The notes beneath the pieces were generated by a model, which saw nothing but the letters and a program-made list of their open reading frames with translations, was not told the DNA's origin and searched no databases. Of a DNA stretch of 47,087 bases, positions 2,819-44,026 are shown piece after piece. Source of the DNA: a virus (taxonomy: Duplodnaviria; Heunggongvirae; Uroviricota; Caudoviricetes); the IMG/VR virus record IMGVR_UViG_2718218131_000001; one strand, written 5' to 3'. The translations under genes and the position numbers were made by a program. How positions within the stretch are numbered: position 1 is the first letter of the stretch; every line of letters begins with the position of its first letter.

Positions 2819-5441
<2,623 letters not shown>

Positions 5442-37873: not shown

Positions 37874-40800
37874 ATGGGTAAAGGCAGCAGTAAGGGGCAT
37901 ACCCCGCGCGAAGCGAAGGACAACCTGAAGTCCACGCAGCTGCTGAGTGTGATCGATGCCATCAGTGAAGGGCCGGTTGAAGGTCCGGTGGATGGATTAA
38001 AAAGCGTGCTGCTGAACAGTACGCCGGTGCTGGACAGTGAGGGGAATACCAACATCTCCGGCGTCACGGTGGTGTTCCGGGCAGGTGAGCAGGAGCAGAC
38101 ACCGCCGGAAGGTTTTGAATCCTCCGGCTCCGAGACGGTGCTGGGTACGGAAGTGAAATATGACACGCCGATCACCCGCACCATCACGTCGGCAAACATC
38201 GACCGTCTGCGCTTTACCTTCGGTGTGCAGGCACTGGTGGAAACCACCTCAAAGGGGGACCGGAATCCGTCGGAAGTCCGCCTGCTGGTTCAGATACAGC
38301 GTAACGGTGGCTGGGTGACGGAAAAAGACATCACCATTAAGGGCAAAACCACCTCGCAGTATCTGGCCTCGGTGGTGGTGGATAACCTGCCGCCGCGCCC
38401 GTTTAATATCCGGATGCGCAGGATGACGCCGGACAGCACCACAGACCAGCTGCAGAACAAAACGCTCTGGTCGTCATACACCGAAATCATCGATGTGAAA
38501 CAGTGCTACCCGAACACGGCACTGGTCGGCGTACAGGTGGACCCGGAGCAGTTCGGCAGCCAGCAGGTGAGTCGTAATTATCATCTTCGCGGGCGCATTC
38601 TGCAGGTGCCGTCGAACTATAACCCGCAGACGCGGCAATACAGCGGTATCTGGGACGGAACGTTTAAGCCAGCATACAGCAACAACATGGTCTGGTGTCT
38701 GTGGGATATGCTGACCCATCCGCGCTACGGCATGGGGAAACGTCTTGGTGCGGCGGATGTGGATAAATGGGCGCTGTATGTCATCGGCCAGTACTGCGAC
38801 CAGTCAGTGCCGGACGGCTTTGGCGGCACGGAGCCGCGCATCACCTGTAATGCGTACCTGACCACACAGCGCAAGGCGTGGGATGTGCTCAGTGATTTCT
38901 GCTCGGCGATGCGCTGTATGCCGGTATGGAACGGGCAGACGCTGACGTTCGTGCAGGACCGACCATCAGATAAGGTGTGGACCTATAACCGCAGTAATGT
39001 GGTGATGCCGGATGATGGCGCGCCGTTCCGCTACAGCTTCAGCGCCCTGAAGGACCGCCATAATGCCGTTGAGGTGAACTGGATTGACCCGAACAACGGC
39101 TGGGAGACGGCGACAGAGCTTGTTGAAGATACGCAGGCCATTGCCCGTTACGGTCGTAATGTCACGAAGATGGATGCCTTTGGCTGTACCAGCCGGGGGC
39201 AGGCACACCGCGCCGGGCTGTGGCTGATTAAAACGGAGCTGCTGGAGACGCAGACCGTGGATTTCAGCGTGGGTGCCGAAGGGCTTCGCCATGTGCCGGG
39301 TGATGTTATTGAAATCTGCGATGATGACTATGCGGGGATCAGCACCGGCGGGCGCGTGCTGGCGGTGAACAGCCAGACCCGGACGCTGACGCTCGACCGT
39401 GAAATCACGCTGCCATCCTCCGGCACCACGCTGATAAGCCTGGTTGACGGACAGGGGAATCCGGTCAGCGTGGAAGTTCAGTCCGTCACCGACGGCGTGA
39501 AGGTAAAAGTGAGCCGTGTTCCTGACGGTGTTGCTGAATACAGCGTGTGGGGGCTGAAGCTGCCGACGCTGCGCCAGCGCCTGTTCCGCTGCGTGAGTAT
39601 CCGTGAGAACGATGACGGCACGTATGCCATCACCGCCGTGCAGCATGTACCGGAAAAAGAAGCCATCGTGGATAACGGGGCGCACTTTGACGGCGACCAG
39701 AGCGGCACGGTGAATGGTGTCACGCCGCCAGCGGTGCAGCACCTGACCGCCGAAGTCACAGCAGATAGCGGGGAATATCAGGTGCTGGCGCGCTGGGACA
39801 CGCCGAAGGTGGTGAAGGGCGTGAGCTTCCTGCTCCGTCTGACCGTAACAGCGGATGACGGCAGTGAGCGGCTGGTCAGCACGGCCCGGACGACGGAAAC
39901 CACGTACCGCTTCACGCAACTGGCGCTGGGAAACTACAGGCTGACAGTCAGGGCGGCAAATGCCTGGGGGCAGCAGGGCGATCCGGCATCGGTATCGTTC
40001 CGGATTGCCGCACCGGCAGCGCCTGTCACTATTGAACTGATACCAGGGTATTTTCAGATAACAGCGGTCCCGAAACTGGCTGTATATGACCCGACGGTGC
40101 AGTTTGAGTTCTGGTTCTCGGAAAAGCGGATTGCGGATATCAGGCAGGTTGAAACCACAGCTCGCTATCTTGGCACGGCGCTGTACTGGATAGCTGCCAG
40201 TAGCAATATTAAGCCGGGTTATGATTATTACTTTTATATCCGCAGCGTGAATACCGTTGGTAAATCGGCATTTGTGGAGGCCGTCGGTCGGGCGAGCGAT
40301 GATGCGGAAGGTTATCTGAATTTTTATAAAGGGTTGATCAATAAAACGCATCTCGGCAAGGAACTGCTGGAAAACTTTGAGCTGACGGAAGATAACGCCA
40401 GCAGACTGGAGGAGTTTTCGAAAGAGTGGAAGGACGCCAACGATAAGTGGAATGCCATGTGGGGCGTCAAAATTGAGCAGACCGAAGACGGCAGGCATTA
40501 TGTCGCGGGGCTTGGCCTCAGCATGGAGGATACAGAGGAAGGCAAACTGAGCCAGTTCCTGGTTGCCGCTAACCGTATCGCGTTTATTGACCCGGCAAAC
40601 GGGAATGAAACGCCGATGTTTGTGGCGCAGGGCAATCAGATATTCATGAACGAAGTATTCCTGAAGTATCTGACGGCTCCTACCATTACCAGTGGCGGTA
40701 ATCCTCCGGTATTTTCGCTGACACCGGACGGAAAGCTGACCGCTAAAAATGCGGATATCAGTGGCAGTGTGAATGCGAACGCCGGGACGCTCAACAACGT

Positions 40801-41266
40801 CACGATTAATGAGAGCTGTACTATTAAGGGGATGCTTGATGCTAACCAGGTGCGTGGTGATTTTGTAAAAACGACAGGGCATCGATTTCCGCACCCCGGG
40901 GAATCCCCACAGGGTTCACTTACCGTTCATATTAAGGACGATCATGCCTTTGACAGGCAGATTATAATTCAACCAATCATGTACGGTGCACCACCATATT
41001 TTAGTAAAAATGATGGCGCTAATATCTACGATACCTGCAGATTAATTGTGCGCAAAAATGGCAATGTAATCTATGACAAATCCACTAGTGGTTCGAGAAG
41101 GACAACAGTCGTGTACAGCAATATCATTGATATGCCAGTGGGGGGCGGAGATGTAATATTAACATTTGAAGTTCAGTCGAGCGGCAGTGGAGAGCCCAGA
41201 ACATGGATCAGTGATTTAATGGTCTCGGTAACGAAAAAAGCCGCATCCGGTATCAGTATCAGTTGA
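37874..41266 (+). CDS. J: Central tail fibre / host-specificity protein J
   Basis: 1130-aa ORF in the lambda gpJ position with fibronectin-type repeats and C-terminal receptor-binding region. Confidence 0.95.
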
Positions 41267-41287
41267 AATTTTTATAACCCCAATACG

Positions 41288-41312
41288 GGCGCCAGAAATG
41301 GCGCCTTTTTTA
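41288..41312 (+). terminator. Rho-independent terminator after J
   Basis: Hairpin GGCGCCA-GAAA-TGGCGCC followed by T6. Confidence 0.6.
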
Positions 41313-41335
41313 TTGCAGAAAAGCGAGAGGTAATT

Positions 41336-41935
41336 ATGCGTAAAGTTTGTGCAGCCATTTTGTCCGCAGCCATCTGTCTGGCCGTATCCGGTGCGTCTGC
41401 ATGGGCGTCTGAACATCAGTCCACACTGAGCGCAGGGTATCTTCATGCCCGTACGAACGCACCCGGCAGCGATAATCTGAACGGGATTAACGTGAAATAC
41501 CGTTATGAATTTACGGACACGCTGGGGCTGGTGACGTCATTCAGCTATGCAGGAGACAAGAATCGCCAGCTTACCCGTTACAGCGATACCCGCTGGCATG
41601 AGGATTCCGTGCGTAATCGCTGGTTCAGCGTGATGGCGGGGCCGTCTGTGCGCGTGAATGAATGGTTCAGCGCGTATGCGATGGCGGGTATGGCTTACAG
41701 CCGTGTGTCGACTTTCTCCGGGGATTATCTCCGCGTAACTGACAACAAGGGGAAAACGCACGACGTGCTGACCGGAAGTGATGACGGTCGCCACAGCAAC
41801 ACGTCTCTGGCATGGGGAGCTGGCGTGCAGTTTAACCCGACCGAATCCGTGGCCATTGATATTGCTTATGAAGGCTCCGGCAGTGGCGACTGGCGCACTG
41901 ACGGTTTCATCGTGGGTGTCGGTTATAAGTTCTGA
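41336..41935 (+). CDS. lom: Outer-membrane protein Lom (Ail/Lom family)
   Basis: 199-aa ORF with signal peptide and beta-barrel Ail/Lom signature ending ...[10 protein letters not shown]. Confidence 0.9.
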
Positions 41936-41961
41936 TTAGCCAGGTAACACAGTGTTATGAC

Positions 41962-41989
41962 AGCCCGCCGGTTCAGGCGGGCTTTTTTG
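41962..41989 (+). terminator. Rho-independent terminator after lom
   Basis: Hairpin AGCCCGCC-(6 nt)-GGCGGGCT followed by T6. Confidence 0.6.
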
Positions 41990-41999
41990 TGGGGTGAAT

Positions 42000-43313
42000 A
42001 TGGCAGTAAAGATTTCAGGTGTACTGAAAGACGGCACAGGAAAACCGGTAGAGAACTGCACCATTCAACTGAAAGCCAGACGGACCAGCAGCACGGTGGT
42101 GGTGAACACGCTGGCCTCTGAAAATCCGGATGAAGCCGGGCGTTACAGCATGGACGTTGAGTACGGTCAGTACAGCGTCATTCTGTTGGTGGAAGGCTTC
42201 CCGCCGTCACATGCCGGGACCATCACCGTGTATGAAGATTCTCAACCGGGTACGCTGAATGATTTTCTCGGTGCCATGTCGGAGGATGACGTCCGGCCGG
42301 AGGCACTGCGTCGTTTTGAACTGATGGTGGAAGAGGTGGCGCGTCACGCTGAGGAGGCGAAGAAGAATGCCGGAGAGGCGGAGATGTCAGCAAGGAATGC
42401 CGGCATATCAGCCAGTCAGGCAGAAAAGAGCGCTGCACATGCTGACACTTCAGCAGGATATGCATCGGAGTCAGCCCGGCAGGCGGCAGAAAGTGCAGCC
42501 TCAGCAAAGCAGTCAGAGGAGGCGTCCTCGTCCTCGGCCTCTGAGGCCGCTCAAAAAGCCAGTGAGTCATCACAAAGTGCAGCAGAAGCTGAATTGTCAA
42601 GAAAGACGGCAGAAAGTGCAGCCGGTAATGCCGCCAGGGATGCAACGACCGCAGCAGAAAAAGCCCGGGAGTCAGCAGAAAGCGCACAGTCAGCGGAACA
42701 AAGCAGGATAGCGGCGGAAGACGCCGTAAACCGAATCCCCACCGTGGTGGGACCTCCCGGGCCAAAGGGGGAACAGGGGCCCGCGGGTCCTCAGGGGCCG
42801 AAGGGTGATAAGGGAGAGCGCGGTGACACCGGCCCTGTCGGGGCAACCGGCGAACGGGGACCGGCAGGTGATGCTGGTCCGGCAGGCCCGCAGGGGCCGA
42901 AAGGTGACAGGGGAGAGCGGGGAGAGACCGGTCTGACGGGAAATGCAGGTCCACAGGGTCCAAAGGGAGACACCGGTGCGGCAGGCCCGGCAGGCCCACA
43001 GGGACCGAAAGGAGAAACAGGTGCGGCTGGCCCGGTGGGGGCAACCGGACCTCAGGGACCGAAGGGCGACCCGGGGGAGACACAAATCCGTTTTCGTCTG
43101 GGGCCGGCGAGCATTATTGAGACAAACAGCAATGGCTGGTTCCCGGGTACAGATGGTGCGCTCATCACCGGACTGACCTTTCTTGACCCCAAAGATGCCA
43201 CACAGGTTCAGGGGCTGTTTCAGCATTTGCAGGTCAGGTTTGGTGACGGGCCGTGGCAGGATGTTAAGGGGCTGAATGAAGTGGGCAGTGATACAGGCAG
43301 AACAGGAGAATGA
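42000..43313 (+). CDS. stf: Side tail fibre protein, Stf-like N-terminus with collagen-like repeats
   Basis: Track ORF 41994..43313; ATG 42000 (MAVKISGVLKDGTGKPV...) matches lambda Stf N-terminal domain; Ala/Ser-rich coil, ~110 residues of G-X-Y repeats, short C-terminal domain. Confidence 0.85.
   Translation: MAVKISGVLKDGTGKPVENCTIQLKARRTSSTVVVNTLASENPDEAGRYSMDVEYGQYSVILLVEGFPPSHAGTITVYEDSQPGTLNDFLGAMSEDDVRPEALRRFELMVEEVARHAEEAKKNAGEAEMSARNAGISASQAEKSAAHADTSAGYASESARQAAESAASAKQSEEASSSSASEAAQKASESSQSAAEAELSRKTAESAAGNAARDATTAAEKARESAESAQSAEQSRIAAEDAVNRIPTVVGPPGPKGEQGPAGPQGPKGDKGERGDTGPVGATGERGPAGDAGPAGPQGPKGDRGERGETGLTGNAGPQGPKGDTGAAGPAGPQGPKGETGAAGPVGATGPQGPKGDPGETQIRFRLGPASIIETNSNGWFPGTDGALITGLTFLDPKDATQVQGLFQHLQVRFGDGPWQDVKGLNEVGSDTGRTGE
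42745..43080 (+). repeat. Collagen-like G-X-Y triplet repeats within stf
   Basis: Uninterrupted GPPGPKGEQGPAGPQGPKGDKGERGDTGP... for about 37 triplets. Confidence 0.85.
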
Positions 43314-43314
43314 C

Positions 43315-43584
43315 ATGAATATACTAAAAAAACTTATGCAGCGTCTGTGTGGTTGCGGAAAGCATGATGGCCGTGAACACGTGCAGTCGCTTACAGCACA
43401 ACTGCGACTGGGACCGGCAGACATTCTGGAGTCAGATGAGAATGGCATTATTCCGGAGCAGGACAGGATAATCACACAGGTGGTGATACTGGATGCAGAT
43501 AAAAAGCAGATACAGTGTGTGGTAAGACCGCTGCAAATCCTGCGTGCTGACGGGACGTGGGAAAATATTGGCGGGATGAAGTAA
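43315..43584 (+). CDS. Small protein paralogous to the stf C-terminal domain
   Basis: Track ORF 43276..43584; ATG 43315 after AGGAG, 1 nt past the stf stop; RLGPADILESDENGIIPEQDRIITQVVILD aligns with stf C-terminus RLGPASIIETNSNGWFPGTDGALITGLTFLD. Confidence 0.55.
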   Translation: MNILKKLMQRLCGCGKHDGREHVQSLTAQLRLGPADILESDENGIIPEQDRIITQVVILDADKKQIQCVVRPLQILRADGTWENIGGMK

Positions 43585-43602
43585 CCCGACAGCTTCACAA
43601 AA

Positions 43603-43626
43603 CCGGAGTCCGGCTCCGGTTTTTTG
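43603..43626 (+). terminator. Rho-independent terminator
   Basis: Hairpin CCGGAG-(5 nt)-CTCCGG flanked by A4 and T6. Confidence 0.6.
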
Positions 43627-43832
43627 TTGTCATGTCATGGTGATGTTTGTTAATGAAGTTAAATTTATTTTGGCTTGATAATGGAGTCTTATCTTTTGCA
43701 AGACTGATAATGGTGTGTGAAAGCATTGTGATAAGTAGGATGCTTCAACAGGAAATCAAGTAAAATGTTAATGAAGTTAATGGGGGTTTTATTATGCCAA
43801 TAAATTTAACACCATATCTAACAGTGCAAAAT

Positions 43833-43952
43833 GGCATCTGAATCGATCGCAGTTTGGCATTCGAATCGATCATGATTTGGCATCCATCTCCGATCACAGT
43901 TTGGCATCACAATCGATCACGATTTGGCATGCTTCCGATCATTGATTGGCAT
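43833..43952 (+). repeat. Six tandem ~23-bp repeats (GATCAC-GATTTGGCAT type) at the IS left end
   Basis: TTTGGCAT recurs with a 23-bp period at 43837, 43860, 43883, 43907, 43930 and 43952; inverted copies at 46395..46448; typical of multiple transposase-binding sites in IS21-family ends. Confidence 0.6.
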
Positions 43953-44026
43953 CCTGCCAGTCACTCCGGGAATTAACTCTTTTCACCACAGTCTCCATTG
44001 CCGTGTTTAAACCAGTGGAGACGTCA

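Follow-up and report, generated by a model that had tools for sequence, protein, structure and literature searches.

Positions 42000-43584 of the viral record IMGVR_UViG_2718218131_000001, whose 47,087 nucleotides are hereafter called the window, hold an ordinary two-gene side-tail-fibre module of the Shiga toxin (Stx)-type lambdoid phages and prophages of Escherichia coli. The first gene (42000..43313, + strand) encodes a 437-residue fibre with the EPclA architecture PfN-PCoil-Col-PfC, in which PfC is the C-terminal knob. The second (43315..43584, + strand) encodes an 89-residue protein with PfC as its only recognized domain. This small protein is real, expressed and kept by selection, and it is always accompanied by a fibre with a PfC tip, whether the phage has a long or a short tail. 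Moreover, phage Sp5 remains infectious for E. coli K-12 when the homologous gene is deleted (Mondal et al., 2016; PMC5155283). The reading favoured here, and held tentatively, is that the small protein serves the fibre knob as a soluble accessory that the phage can do without.

A preliminary description of this DNA had presented the arrangement as unusual. It is instead the normal, annotated and already published state of this fibre family, a standard two-gene module described by Ghosh et al. (2012; PMC3368898) and Mondal et al. (2016), and not a new element. The interpretations offered in that description, namely a duplicated receptor-binding tip, a fibre assembly chaperone derived from the tip and the remnant of a tip-switching rearrangement, likewise already stand in the literature and in database records. 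The record labels include 'contains a RLGP motif similar to phage side tail fiber' for phi24B, 'alternate tail fiber tip' for AU5Stx1 (GenBank KU977419) and 'tail fiber assembly chaperone' for lambda h434 imm21. In the literature searched, the work of Mondal et al. (2016) is the only one on the function of the small gene.

Architecture of the Side Tail Fibre

The fibre ORF extends from an ATG at 42000 to a stop codon at 43311-43313. This start was chosen by the annotation pipeline PGAP and in the preliminary description, whereas the program-made list of open reading frames (ORFs) began the gene at a GTG at 41994. On identical DNA, PGAP names the product 'prophage tail fiber N-terminal domain-containing protein'. 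The tail-attachment domain PfN (42000..42398, + strand) is of the lambda Stf type and matches PF08400 (phage_tail_N) over residues 3-135 with an E-value of 2.6e-68. The same N-terminus is related to a solved 94-residue chain named 'Tail fiber protein' in PDB 9e7m/9mgh (E=5e-51), which is probably the side fibre of Ur-lambda. PCoil, the Ala/Ser-rich segment of 116 residues (residues 135-250; 42402..42749, + strand), is 31% Ala, 21% Ser and 13% Glu. It is followed by the collagen domain (residues 251-361; 42750..43082, + strand), where a regular-expression count gives 37 uninterrupted G-X-Y triplets, the Pfam Collagen family matches with an E-value of 3.6e-18, and the repeat families D1 and D2 are located. 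The C-terminal region of 76 amino acids (43083..43310, + strand) consists of the PfC knob and a 12-residue tail, NEVGSDTGRTGE, that is missing from the small ORF. Sixty-four of its residues match positions 1-64 of the PF06820 profile (Phage_fiber_C, with the Pfam title 'Putative prophage tail fibre C-terminus') with 123.0 bits, against a gathering threshold of 25 bits. The preliminary description had recognized the lambda Stf N-terminal domain, the Ala/Ser-rich coil, about 37 triplets and a C-terminal domain of about 75 residues, and all four are borne out, the triplets to the exact number.

This combination of PF08400, a 116-residue Ala/Ser segment, 37 triplets and PF06820 in 437 residues is that of EPclA, for which Table 2 of Ghosh et al. 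(2012) gives an equal architecture and length, with a 116-aa coil and a 111-aa collagen segment. When EPclA of strain Sakai was made in E. coli without any partner gene, it formed a trimeric dumbbell in which the Ala/Ser segment is an alpha-helical coiled coil of three chains and the G-X-Y segment a true collagen helix (Ghosh et al., 2012). Additionally, PfC in isolation forms trimers unaided and, once the collagen helix has been melted, nucleates it anew (Ghosh et al., 2012). Given its identity of more than 90% to the Sakai protein, the window fibre is probably also a trimeric dumbbell, with an N-domain that would dock it to the tail, a coiled coil, a true collagen triple helix and a self-trimerising PfC knob that would zip the collagen.

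The Small Protein as a Paralogue of the Fibre Tip

The small ORF consists of a unique N-terminus (residues 1-27), which contains the invariant motif LCGCGK, and a PfC-like part (residues 28-89). In a BLASTP comparison with the fibre end, 24 of 62 positions are identical (39%), with an E-value of 2e-12. Residues 28-89 also match PF06820 with 122.4 bits, and the protein matches PHROG 576 over its whole length (1-89/89; E=1.5e-59). PGAP names it 'phage tail fiber C-terminal domain-containing protein'. The preliminary description had aligned the 89-aa product with the fibre C-terminal domain and regarded the significance of that alignment as decisive. The similarity is far beyond chance, as judged by the E-value of 2e-12 and by the independent scores of both proteins on PF06820. 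The two knob copies align codon for codon from a shared RLGPA motif, yet over the aligned codons the DNA identity is only 55.6% and the longest exact run is 7 nt. These comparisons support the view that the small ORF is a free-standing paralogue of the fibre C-terminal domain that arose by an ancient duplication.

The N-terminal region (43315-43395) appears to have been gained by the duplicated knob together with its own ribosome-binding site and start codon. The LCGCGK motif is invariant in 30 of 30 protein alleles and in the Citrobacter rodentium copy. It is preceded by a predicted short helix (residues 3-11) and followed by His/Cys variants (HDGREH, HDDCEN and HDDCEH). The region may bind a metal or form a disulfide knot between chains, and so take over from the collagen helix in joining three of them. 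In the reading favoured here, the small protein would be a soluble trimeric knob of its own, whose N-termini are held together by the short helix and the Cys-x-Cys motif and not by collagen. As read from the sequence, the N-terminus MNILKKLMQRLCGCG has no signal peptide, lipobox or hydrophobic core. A lipoprotein or secreted exclusion factor, considered because of the LCGC motif, was rejected for want of a hydrophobic signal sequence ahead of it.

Structure prediction is less informative. AlphaFold2 models of the small protein reached a predicted local distance difference test (pLDDT) score of 51.9 from the single sequence and 54.1 with an alignment of eight sequences, and contain only the short N-terminal helix and beta strands. 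The authors of an electron cryomicroscopy (cryo-EM) preprint on phi24B likewise obtained no confident AlphaFold model of this domain (10.64898/2026.04.10.717836). Sequence and profile searches of solved structures found no relative of PfC; matches to optineurin coiled coils (E=0.02-0.57) were set aside as spurious. The small ORF has no match in NCBIfam and, at E<=0.1, none in Pfam other than PF06820.

The Pfam result bears on the chaperone interpretation, according to which the small protein is an obligate, Tfa-like assembly factor, as the lambda h434 imm21 record annotates. Many phage fibres need a Tfa-like chaperone, and the small gene lies immediately 3' of an stf-type gene, as tfa does in lambda. 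Besides the lack of any Pfam similarity except to PF06820, two experiments argue against it. EPclA and the isolated PfC trimerise without the small protein (Ghosh et al., 2012), and in Sp5 the homologue can be deleted. The latter, ORF68 (ECs1229), was described as a small polypeptide comprising the phage fibre C-terminus domain; its individual in-frame deletion does not appear among the nine mutants without infectivity or among the mutants whose titre changed, and the gene was reported as non-essential for forming plaques and for lysogenisation, whereas deletion of the fibre gene ORF67 abolished infectivity (Mondal et al., 2016). The obligate form of the tip-derived chaperone proposed in the preliminary description is therefore disfavoured and, on this evidence, extremely unlikely.

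Linkage, Selection and Distribution

The two genes are strictly linked. At an identity of at least 80%, 296 phage records contain a small-type copy and 296 contain a fibre-type copy, with strict co-occurrence of the two; the small ORF is 80-99% identical to these phage copies. Comparison with related tail-fibre loci, which the preliminary description had proposed as a check, showed the two-gene arrangement to be recurrent among 85 loci. The coupling junction GGAGA(A/G)TGACATGAA was invariant in 80 of them, those in which the fibre end is in frame. The exceptions are explained by frameshifts in the fibre gene or by insertion sequences, and the small ORF is intact there. In loci L036 and L059 (small ORF at 4001 and 104, respectively), the sequence 5' of the ATG is not that of a fibre (junction ACGAATGACATGAAC) and the small ORF is also intact; the transposase-like frame at this place suggests that an insertion sequence may have replaced the fibre. 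Long-tailed phages (lambda 2B8, lambda h434) carry the module after lom, and in short-tailed Stx2 phages (phi24B, Sp5) it is located within the tail cluster. Because siphoviruses and podoviruses both carry it with both genes, the module moves as a unit.

Selection acts on the small protein itself. The ratio of nonsynonymous to synonymous polymorphism (pN/pS) of the small gene is 0.12 among 56 nucleotide alleles, with 0.086 for the PfC part and 0.25 for the N-terminal 27 residues, compared with 0.27 for the fibre knob (38 alleles). Its segregating sites are distributed 11/13/26 over codon positions 1/2/3, and its ribosome-binding site and ATG are invariant across the in-frame comparison loci. 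Together, the low pN/pS and the invariant LCGCGK motif indicate that the protein is under constraint and is neither a decaying remnant nor a silent cassette.

The same data weigh on the possibility that the small ORF is a functionless remnant of a past tip replacement, intact only through its shortness. Phages often carry displaced fibre ends downstream of their fibre genes. The deletion without a reported phenotype would fit a remnant, as would the small ORFs that remain intact beside frameshifted fibres in defective prophages. However, decay is hard to reconcile with the pN/pS of 0.12 and the skew towards third codon positions, with the invariance of the ribosome-binding site, the ATG and LCGCGK, with the presence of the small gene in all 296 phage records that have this fibre type, or with the detection of the protein by mass spectrometry. 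The preliminary description's remnant of a tip-switching rearrangement is accordingly disfavoured, chiefly by the pN/pS and the invariant start signals, and is very unlikely.

About 13% of complete E. coli genomes carry the fibre module, often in many copies. An exhaustive profile search of 1.84 billion representative proteins gave only 82 matches, nearly all of them fragments of the E. coli type. In a word-indexed search, the small ORF appeared nowhere but in E. coli, E. albertii, Shigella and C. rodentium, apart from a few probable contaminants. The C. rodentium copies are degraded remnants of both genes and carry no information on co-evolution. Copies at least 92% identical to the small ORF also occur in very short contigs, one of 725 nt assigned to Xanthomonas pisi DSM 18956 (L085) and cluster members named Salmonella Enteritidis; contaminating E. 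coli DNA is the simplest explanation of these.

A single remote relative stands clearly apart, P0145, a collagen-containing fibre of 565 aa from a metagenome (Logan, 6.6-kb contig) that passes the PF06820 threshold. N-terminal to its collagen it has four tandem modules of about 72 residues, whose second halves match the PfC of the small ORF (RADGTW...) and which end as the small ORF does (...VVVLDADAK...LQVRRADGTWMEIPALKG). A fibre can therefore hold several PfC-like modules in a row along its axis. Following the P0145 repeat further was a dead end, since proteins of 99 aa match only its non-PfC half and lie in unrelated tail gene clusters. Two other proteins with matches in several stretches, P0139 (CarboxypepD_reg repeats) and P0169 (a short 'TDGSWNNVNG' repeat in a seemingly eukaryote-type protein), were uninformative.

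The Junction Between the Two Genes

The junction has the form expected of translational coupling (43304..43317, + strand). An AGGAG sequence (43304-43308) lies in the last codons of the fibre gene, seven bases upstream of the small-ORF ATG, and is followed by the TGA stop codon (43311-43313), a single C and the ATG at 43315. The placement of the ATG 1 nt past the fibre stop, behind an AGGAG ribosome-binding site, had already been noted in the preliminary description and can be read directly from the sequence. No promoter-like site was found between the two genes. Translation of the small protein is coupled to that of the fibre, where the late operon ends.

The small ORF is in the +1 frame relative to the fibre, which raises the question of whether programmed frameshifting or slippage fuses the two into a fibre with two tandem knobs. 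In many alleles, the small-ORF frame is open for 138 nt upstream and a run of six to eight T residues (GGTTTTTTTCAG) lies within the fibre knob and the overlap (for example, L002 4895-4910). In the window allele, by contrast, the frame is open for only 38 nt upstream, this overlap contains no slippery heptamer or homopolymer run, and CTGTTT stands in place of the T-run. Only about 31 of 80 loci have the run, so that there is no conserved slippery site in a doubly open overlap, and Mondal et al. (2016) found no sequence able to induce a programmed frameshift in Sp5. The T-run behaves instead as a mutational hot spot. Single-base insertions or deletions in or near it truncate the fibre in L047 and make the fibre read into the small ORF in L011 and L012 (about 3700-4000).

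Peptides provide a further check, as such fusions were included by the phi24B authors in their search database. The proteome supplement of the phi24B preprint was searched against artificial fibre-ORF fusions, and for one of them, 'Fusion_6159_FS1 - Spike or just gp59?', the sole 'unique' peptide was SVVVSGTLK, with 88 spectra. This peptide is the N-terminus of the fibre after removal of Met, and the fusion-unique peptide is therefore a database artefact. No peptide spanning the fibre/small-ORF junction is found in the part of the supplement examined. Overall, the probability that a frameshift produces tandem knobs is next to negligible.

The Small Protein in phi24B Virions

The same supplement shows that the small protein is made. 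In gradient-purified phi24B virions, the small-protein part of the fusion entry was represented by six razor peptides with 11 spectra, compared with 2559 spectra for the fibre. Two of the six peptides, ADGTWENIGGMK and VITQVVILDADKK, accounted for three spectra each. Per residue, and bearing in mind that spectral counts are a crude measure of copy number for an 89-residue protein, this corresponds to 0.12 spectra for the small protein, about 3% of the fibre (3.9), and to 0.10 for Lom, which the authors regard as a contaminant (10.64898/2026.04.10.717836). The presence of peptides at this trace level indicates that the small protein is made in lytic growth and is at most a trace component of the virion.

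These numbers bear directly on the possibility that the small protein is a structural distal tip or adaptor, a virion-bound trimer stacked on the knob or branching from it and required on certain hosts only. Production together with the fibre is favoured by translational coupling, PfC domains form trimeric knobs (Ghosh et al., 2012), similar modules occur in series in P0145, and six peptides did accompany purified virions. Dispensability on rough K-12 is also what would be expected of an accessory adhesin. However, 11 spectra against 2559 are at contaminant level, and the cryo-EM analysis of phi24B describes a single type of lateral fibre, made of gp61 trimers, whose C-terminal domain is not resolved in three dimensions (10.64898/2026.04.10.717836). 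In addition, the pN/pS of 0.086 in the small protein against 0.27 in the knob is the reverse of what is usual for an outermost receptor-binding surface. A stable structural role at the fibre tip is therefore doubtful. As for the duplicated receptor-binding tip of the preliminary description, the trace amount in virions tells against it without deciding the matter.

A soluble role away from the virion would account for the near absence of the protein from particles. After lysis, the small protein might cover receptors on debris or on neighbouring cells; alternatively, its activity might have nothing to do with the fibre. Its expression during lytic growth, near absence from virions, non-essential nature and similarity to a cell-binding knob would all suit such a function. 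On the other side, it has no recognizable signal peptide or lipobox and no separate promoter, a 39% identity to the fibre knob does not imply a shared ligand, and there is no precedent for a role of this kind in the family. This explanation is distinctly unlikely.

Possible Recombination Between the Two Knob Copies

Mondal et al. (2016) suggested a 'reservoir' role for the small gene, that is, a stored C-terminus or alternate tip that is grafted onto the fibre by recombination and changes receptor specificity. The name 'alternate tail fiber tip' in KU977419 expresses the same idea. The alignment of the copies codon for codon from RLGPA means that a deletion between them can be in frame, and one such deletion occurs in nature. 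An 11-nt microhomology, GGGACCGGCAG, is present in the window both in the collagen segment (42857..42867, + strand) and in the small ORF (43410-43420; repeat D10). In P0063/L086 (GCA_038404665.1, L086 1-291), the deletion lies exactly between the two copies of this sequence, and the product reads in frame from ...GERGPA into DILESDE.... The result is a shortened collagen joined to a knob of the small type. The single-base changes in L011 and L012, which bring the fibre into the small-ORF frame, can be counted on the same side.

Several observations speak against a reservoir. A silent cassette needs no conserved ribosome-binding site, ATG or private N-terminal extension, and no purifying selection at the protein level. 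Copies that are 55.6% identical, with exact runs of at most 7 nt in the aligned codons, are no substrate for homologous recombination. Swapped fibres are also extremely rare: among 120 listed relatives of the small ORF, P0063 is the only cluster that combines collagen with PF06820. The fusion was found in a single short contig, in two samples, and its junction was not found in 2.9 million viral contigs (IMG/VR) or in the best 25 complete-genome matches. Moreover, the contig begins inside the collagen repeats, so the fused fibre may be incomplete. A reservoir function is rather unlikely.

Dedicated switching systems were considered as well. The preliminary description had seen no invertase genes or inverted repeats nearby, and a repeat search agrees, since it found none that flank the tips and only short, chance-like pairs elsewhere; the neighbours are lom, an IS21-family element and nleG. 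Both knob copies are on the + strand, unlike the arms of an invertible segment of the Gin/Cin type. The 55.6% DNA identity and the longest run of 7 nt rule out ongoing gene conversion and the near-identical template that a diversity-generating retroelement (DGR), with its variable and template repeats (VR/TR), would show. No reverse transcriptase gene was seen next to the module, the remainder of the window not having been screened for one. The DGR, gene-conversion and invertible-segment models were therefore rejected on the divergence of the copies, their orientation and the lack of flanking inverted repeats.

A Proposed Role for the Small Protein

The small protein is, we infer, not a strict chaperone, a silent cassette or a frameshift extension of the fibre. 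As a dispensable, soluble accessory, it would act at the protein level on or beside the fibre knob. It may cap or stabilise the knob during assembly, reduce clumping of one knob with another, or tune adsorption on natural hosts that have O-antigen. With regard to clumping, recombinant EPclB made without the small protein aggregates, and virions of phage 933W clump tail to tail (Ghosh et al., 2012). The accessory reading is preferred because of the identity of the fibre as EPclA, the strict linkage, the selection on the protein, its expression at low abundance, its dispensability, the operon structure and the plausibility of stacking.

Some points weigh against the accessory reading. Trimerisation of the small protein and its contact with the fibre have the backing of neither a confident model (AlphaFold2 pLDDT 52-54) nor a solved relative, and the abundance estimate shares the crudeness of spectral counting and draws on part of the supplement. 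With no reported phenotype for the Sp5 deletion, any benefit must be conditional or too small to appear in log-scale titres. The co-occurrence of the two genes could need no explanation beyond their tight physical linkage. Furthermore, the argument from dispensability takes K-12 to be free of a copy that complements in trans, which is likely from the strict adjacency of the two genes and from the statement that collagen-like ORFs are absent from K-12 (Ghosh et al., 2012). It also assumes that a result for a podovirus on K-12 would carry over to a siphovirus.

A more specific version of the accessory reading is that the small protein is a detachable, self-trimerising knob derived from the tip that docks end-on to the fibre knob, much as PfC-like modules follow one another in P0145, either as a removable anti-clumping cap that covers the tip until release or as an exchangeable outer tip for natural hosts with O-antigen. 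This version is speculative and fairly unlikely. If it were true, a fibre accessory would have been made by duplication of the tip and not by recruitment of a Tfa-type chaperone, and rare microhomology deletions such as that in P0063 could fix the knob covalently onto the fibre.

The question has some practical weight. The module is present in hundreds of Stx1 and Stx2 phages and in multiple prophages per enterohaemorrhagic E. coli genome, beside type III effector loci. The ligand of the fibre and the role of its small partner bear on the spread of Shiga-toxin and effector genes. The phi24B authors list the function of these conserved lateral fibres among the unsettled questions (10.64898/2026.04.10.717836).

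Genomic Context

The 3' part of the window comes from a lambdoid E. coli prophage and comprises its tail end. The genes follow the order J (37874-41266), lom, the fibre gene, the 89-aa ORF, a strong terminator-like hairpin, an IS21-family element and nleG. The lom gene, which encodes an Ail/Lom outer-membrane protein (41336..41935, + strand; PF06316, E=7.5e-120), lies upstream of the fibre module. The DNA from 41300 to 43700 is 100% identical to a prophage of the chicken E. coli strain Z1323CEC0006 and 96-97% identical to many Stx1a, Stx2a and Stx2c phages, phage 2851 and lambda 2B8.

The fibre/small-ORF unit is closed by an intrinsic-terminator-like hairpin and T tract (43599..43631, + strand), in which a stem of 11 pairs (hairpin proper 43599-43623) is followed by TTGTTGTCAT. 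Similar hairpins follow J (41287-41306) and lom (41962-41983), so that each distal tail unit is bracketed by such structures. Late transcripts presumably pass them by Q-dependent antitermination.

The AT-rich spacer between the terminator and the IS21-family element contains an exact 15-nt direct repeat, TGTTAATGAAGTTAA, at 43648-43662 and 43766-43780 (118 nt apart), and a 17-nt inverted repeat (43653-43669/43799-43815). The IS21-family element (43820-46364) sits between the small ORF and nleG and is missing from the otherwise 100%-identical Z1323CEC0006 prophage. It encodes an IstA-like transposase (about 44027-45592), which matches rve and Mu-transpos_C_2, and IstB (45606-46364; PF01695, E=1e-60). 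Five direct repeats of 19-23 nt (CGATCA..TTTGGCAT; 43844-43954) lie ahead of these genes and presumably represent the element's multiple terminal repeats. The type III effector gene of the NleG family (46554-47087; PF06416, E=1.8e-38) continues past the end of the window. The fibre module thus adjoins an exchangeable effector locus, where lambda 2B8, lambda h434 and Z1323CEC0006 have nleG, nleA, nleB, nleC or espM2.

Comparison with Known Systems

In the invertible G/C segments of Mu and P1 and in the DGR of Bordetella phage, as in the window, a second tip-coding copy lies just downstream of the first. In contrast to these systems, the window copy is in direct orientation and is a separately translated gene. 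The stf-tfa pair of lambda resembles the window module in the homologous N-domain of the fibre and in a small gene placed behind the fibre gene where the tail operon ends. However, the small gene of the window is unrelated to tfa and does not belong to the Tfa/Caudo_TAP family, PF06820 being its sole Pfam match at the threshold given above. It is instead a paralogue of the fibre tip, and its homologue is not required, in contrast to the essential fibre. The 'transient chaperone caps' of an Alteromonas phage (PMC10579305) offer the likeness of a small protein encoded 3' of the fibre that may act at its distal end and may be absent from mature virions; the likeness is one of functional analogy only.

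Sp5 ORF68/ECs1229 and the phi24B protein 'gp59' share with the window protein a length of 89 aa, the stop-C-ATG junction and a full-length match to PHROG 576, and the phi24B copy is 92% identical to it. They differ in following a 645-aa podovirus fibre (EPclB), whereas the window gene follows the shorter, siphovirus-type EPclA, and neither the T-run upstream nor the long open overlap of the Sp5 and phi24B alleles is present in the window allele. The fibre itself has its counterpart in EPclA of E. coli O157:H7 Sakai (ECs2717 or ECs1123), which is alike in its 437 aa, its four-part architecture and its place after J and lom, and from which the window copy differs by allelic differences only.

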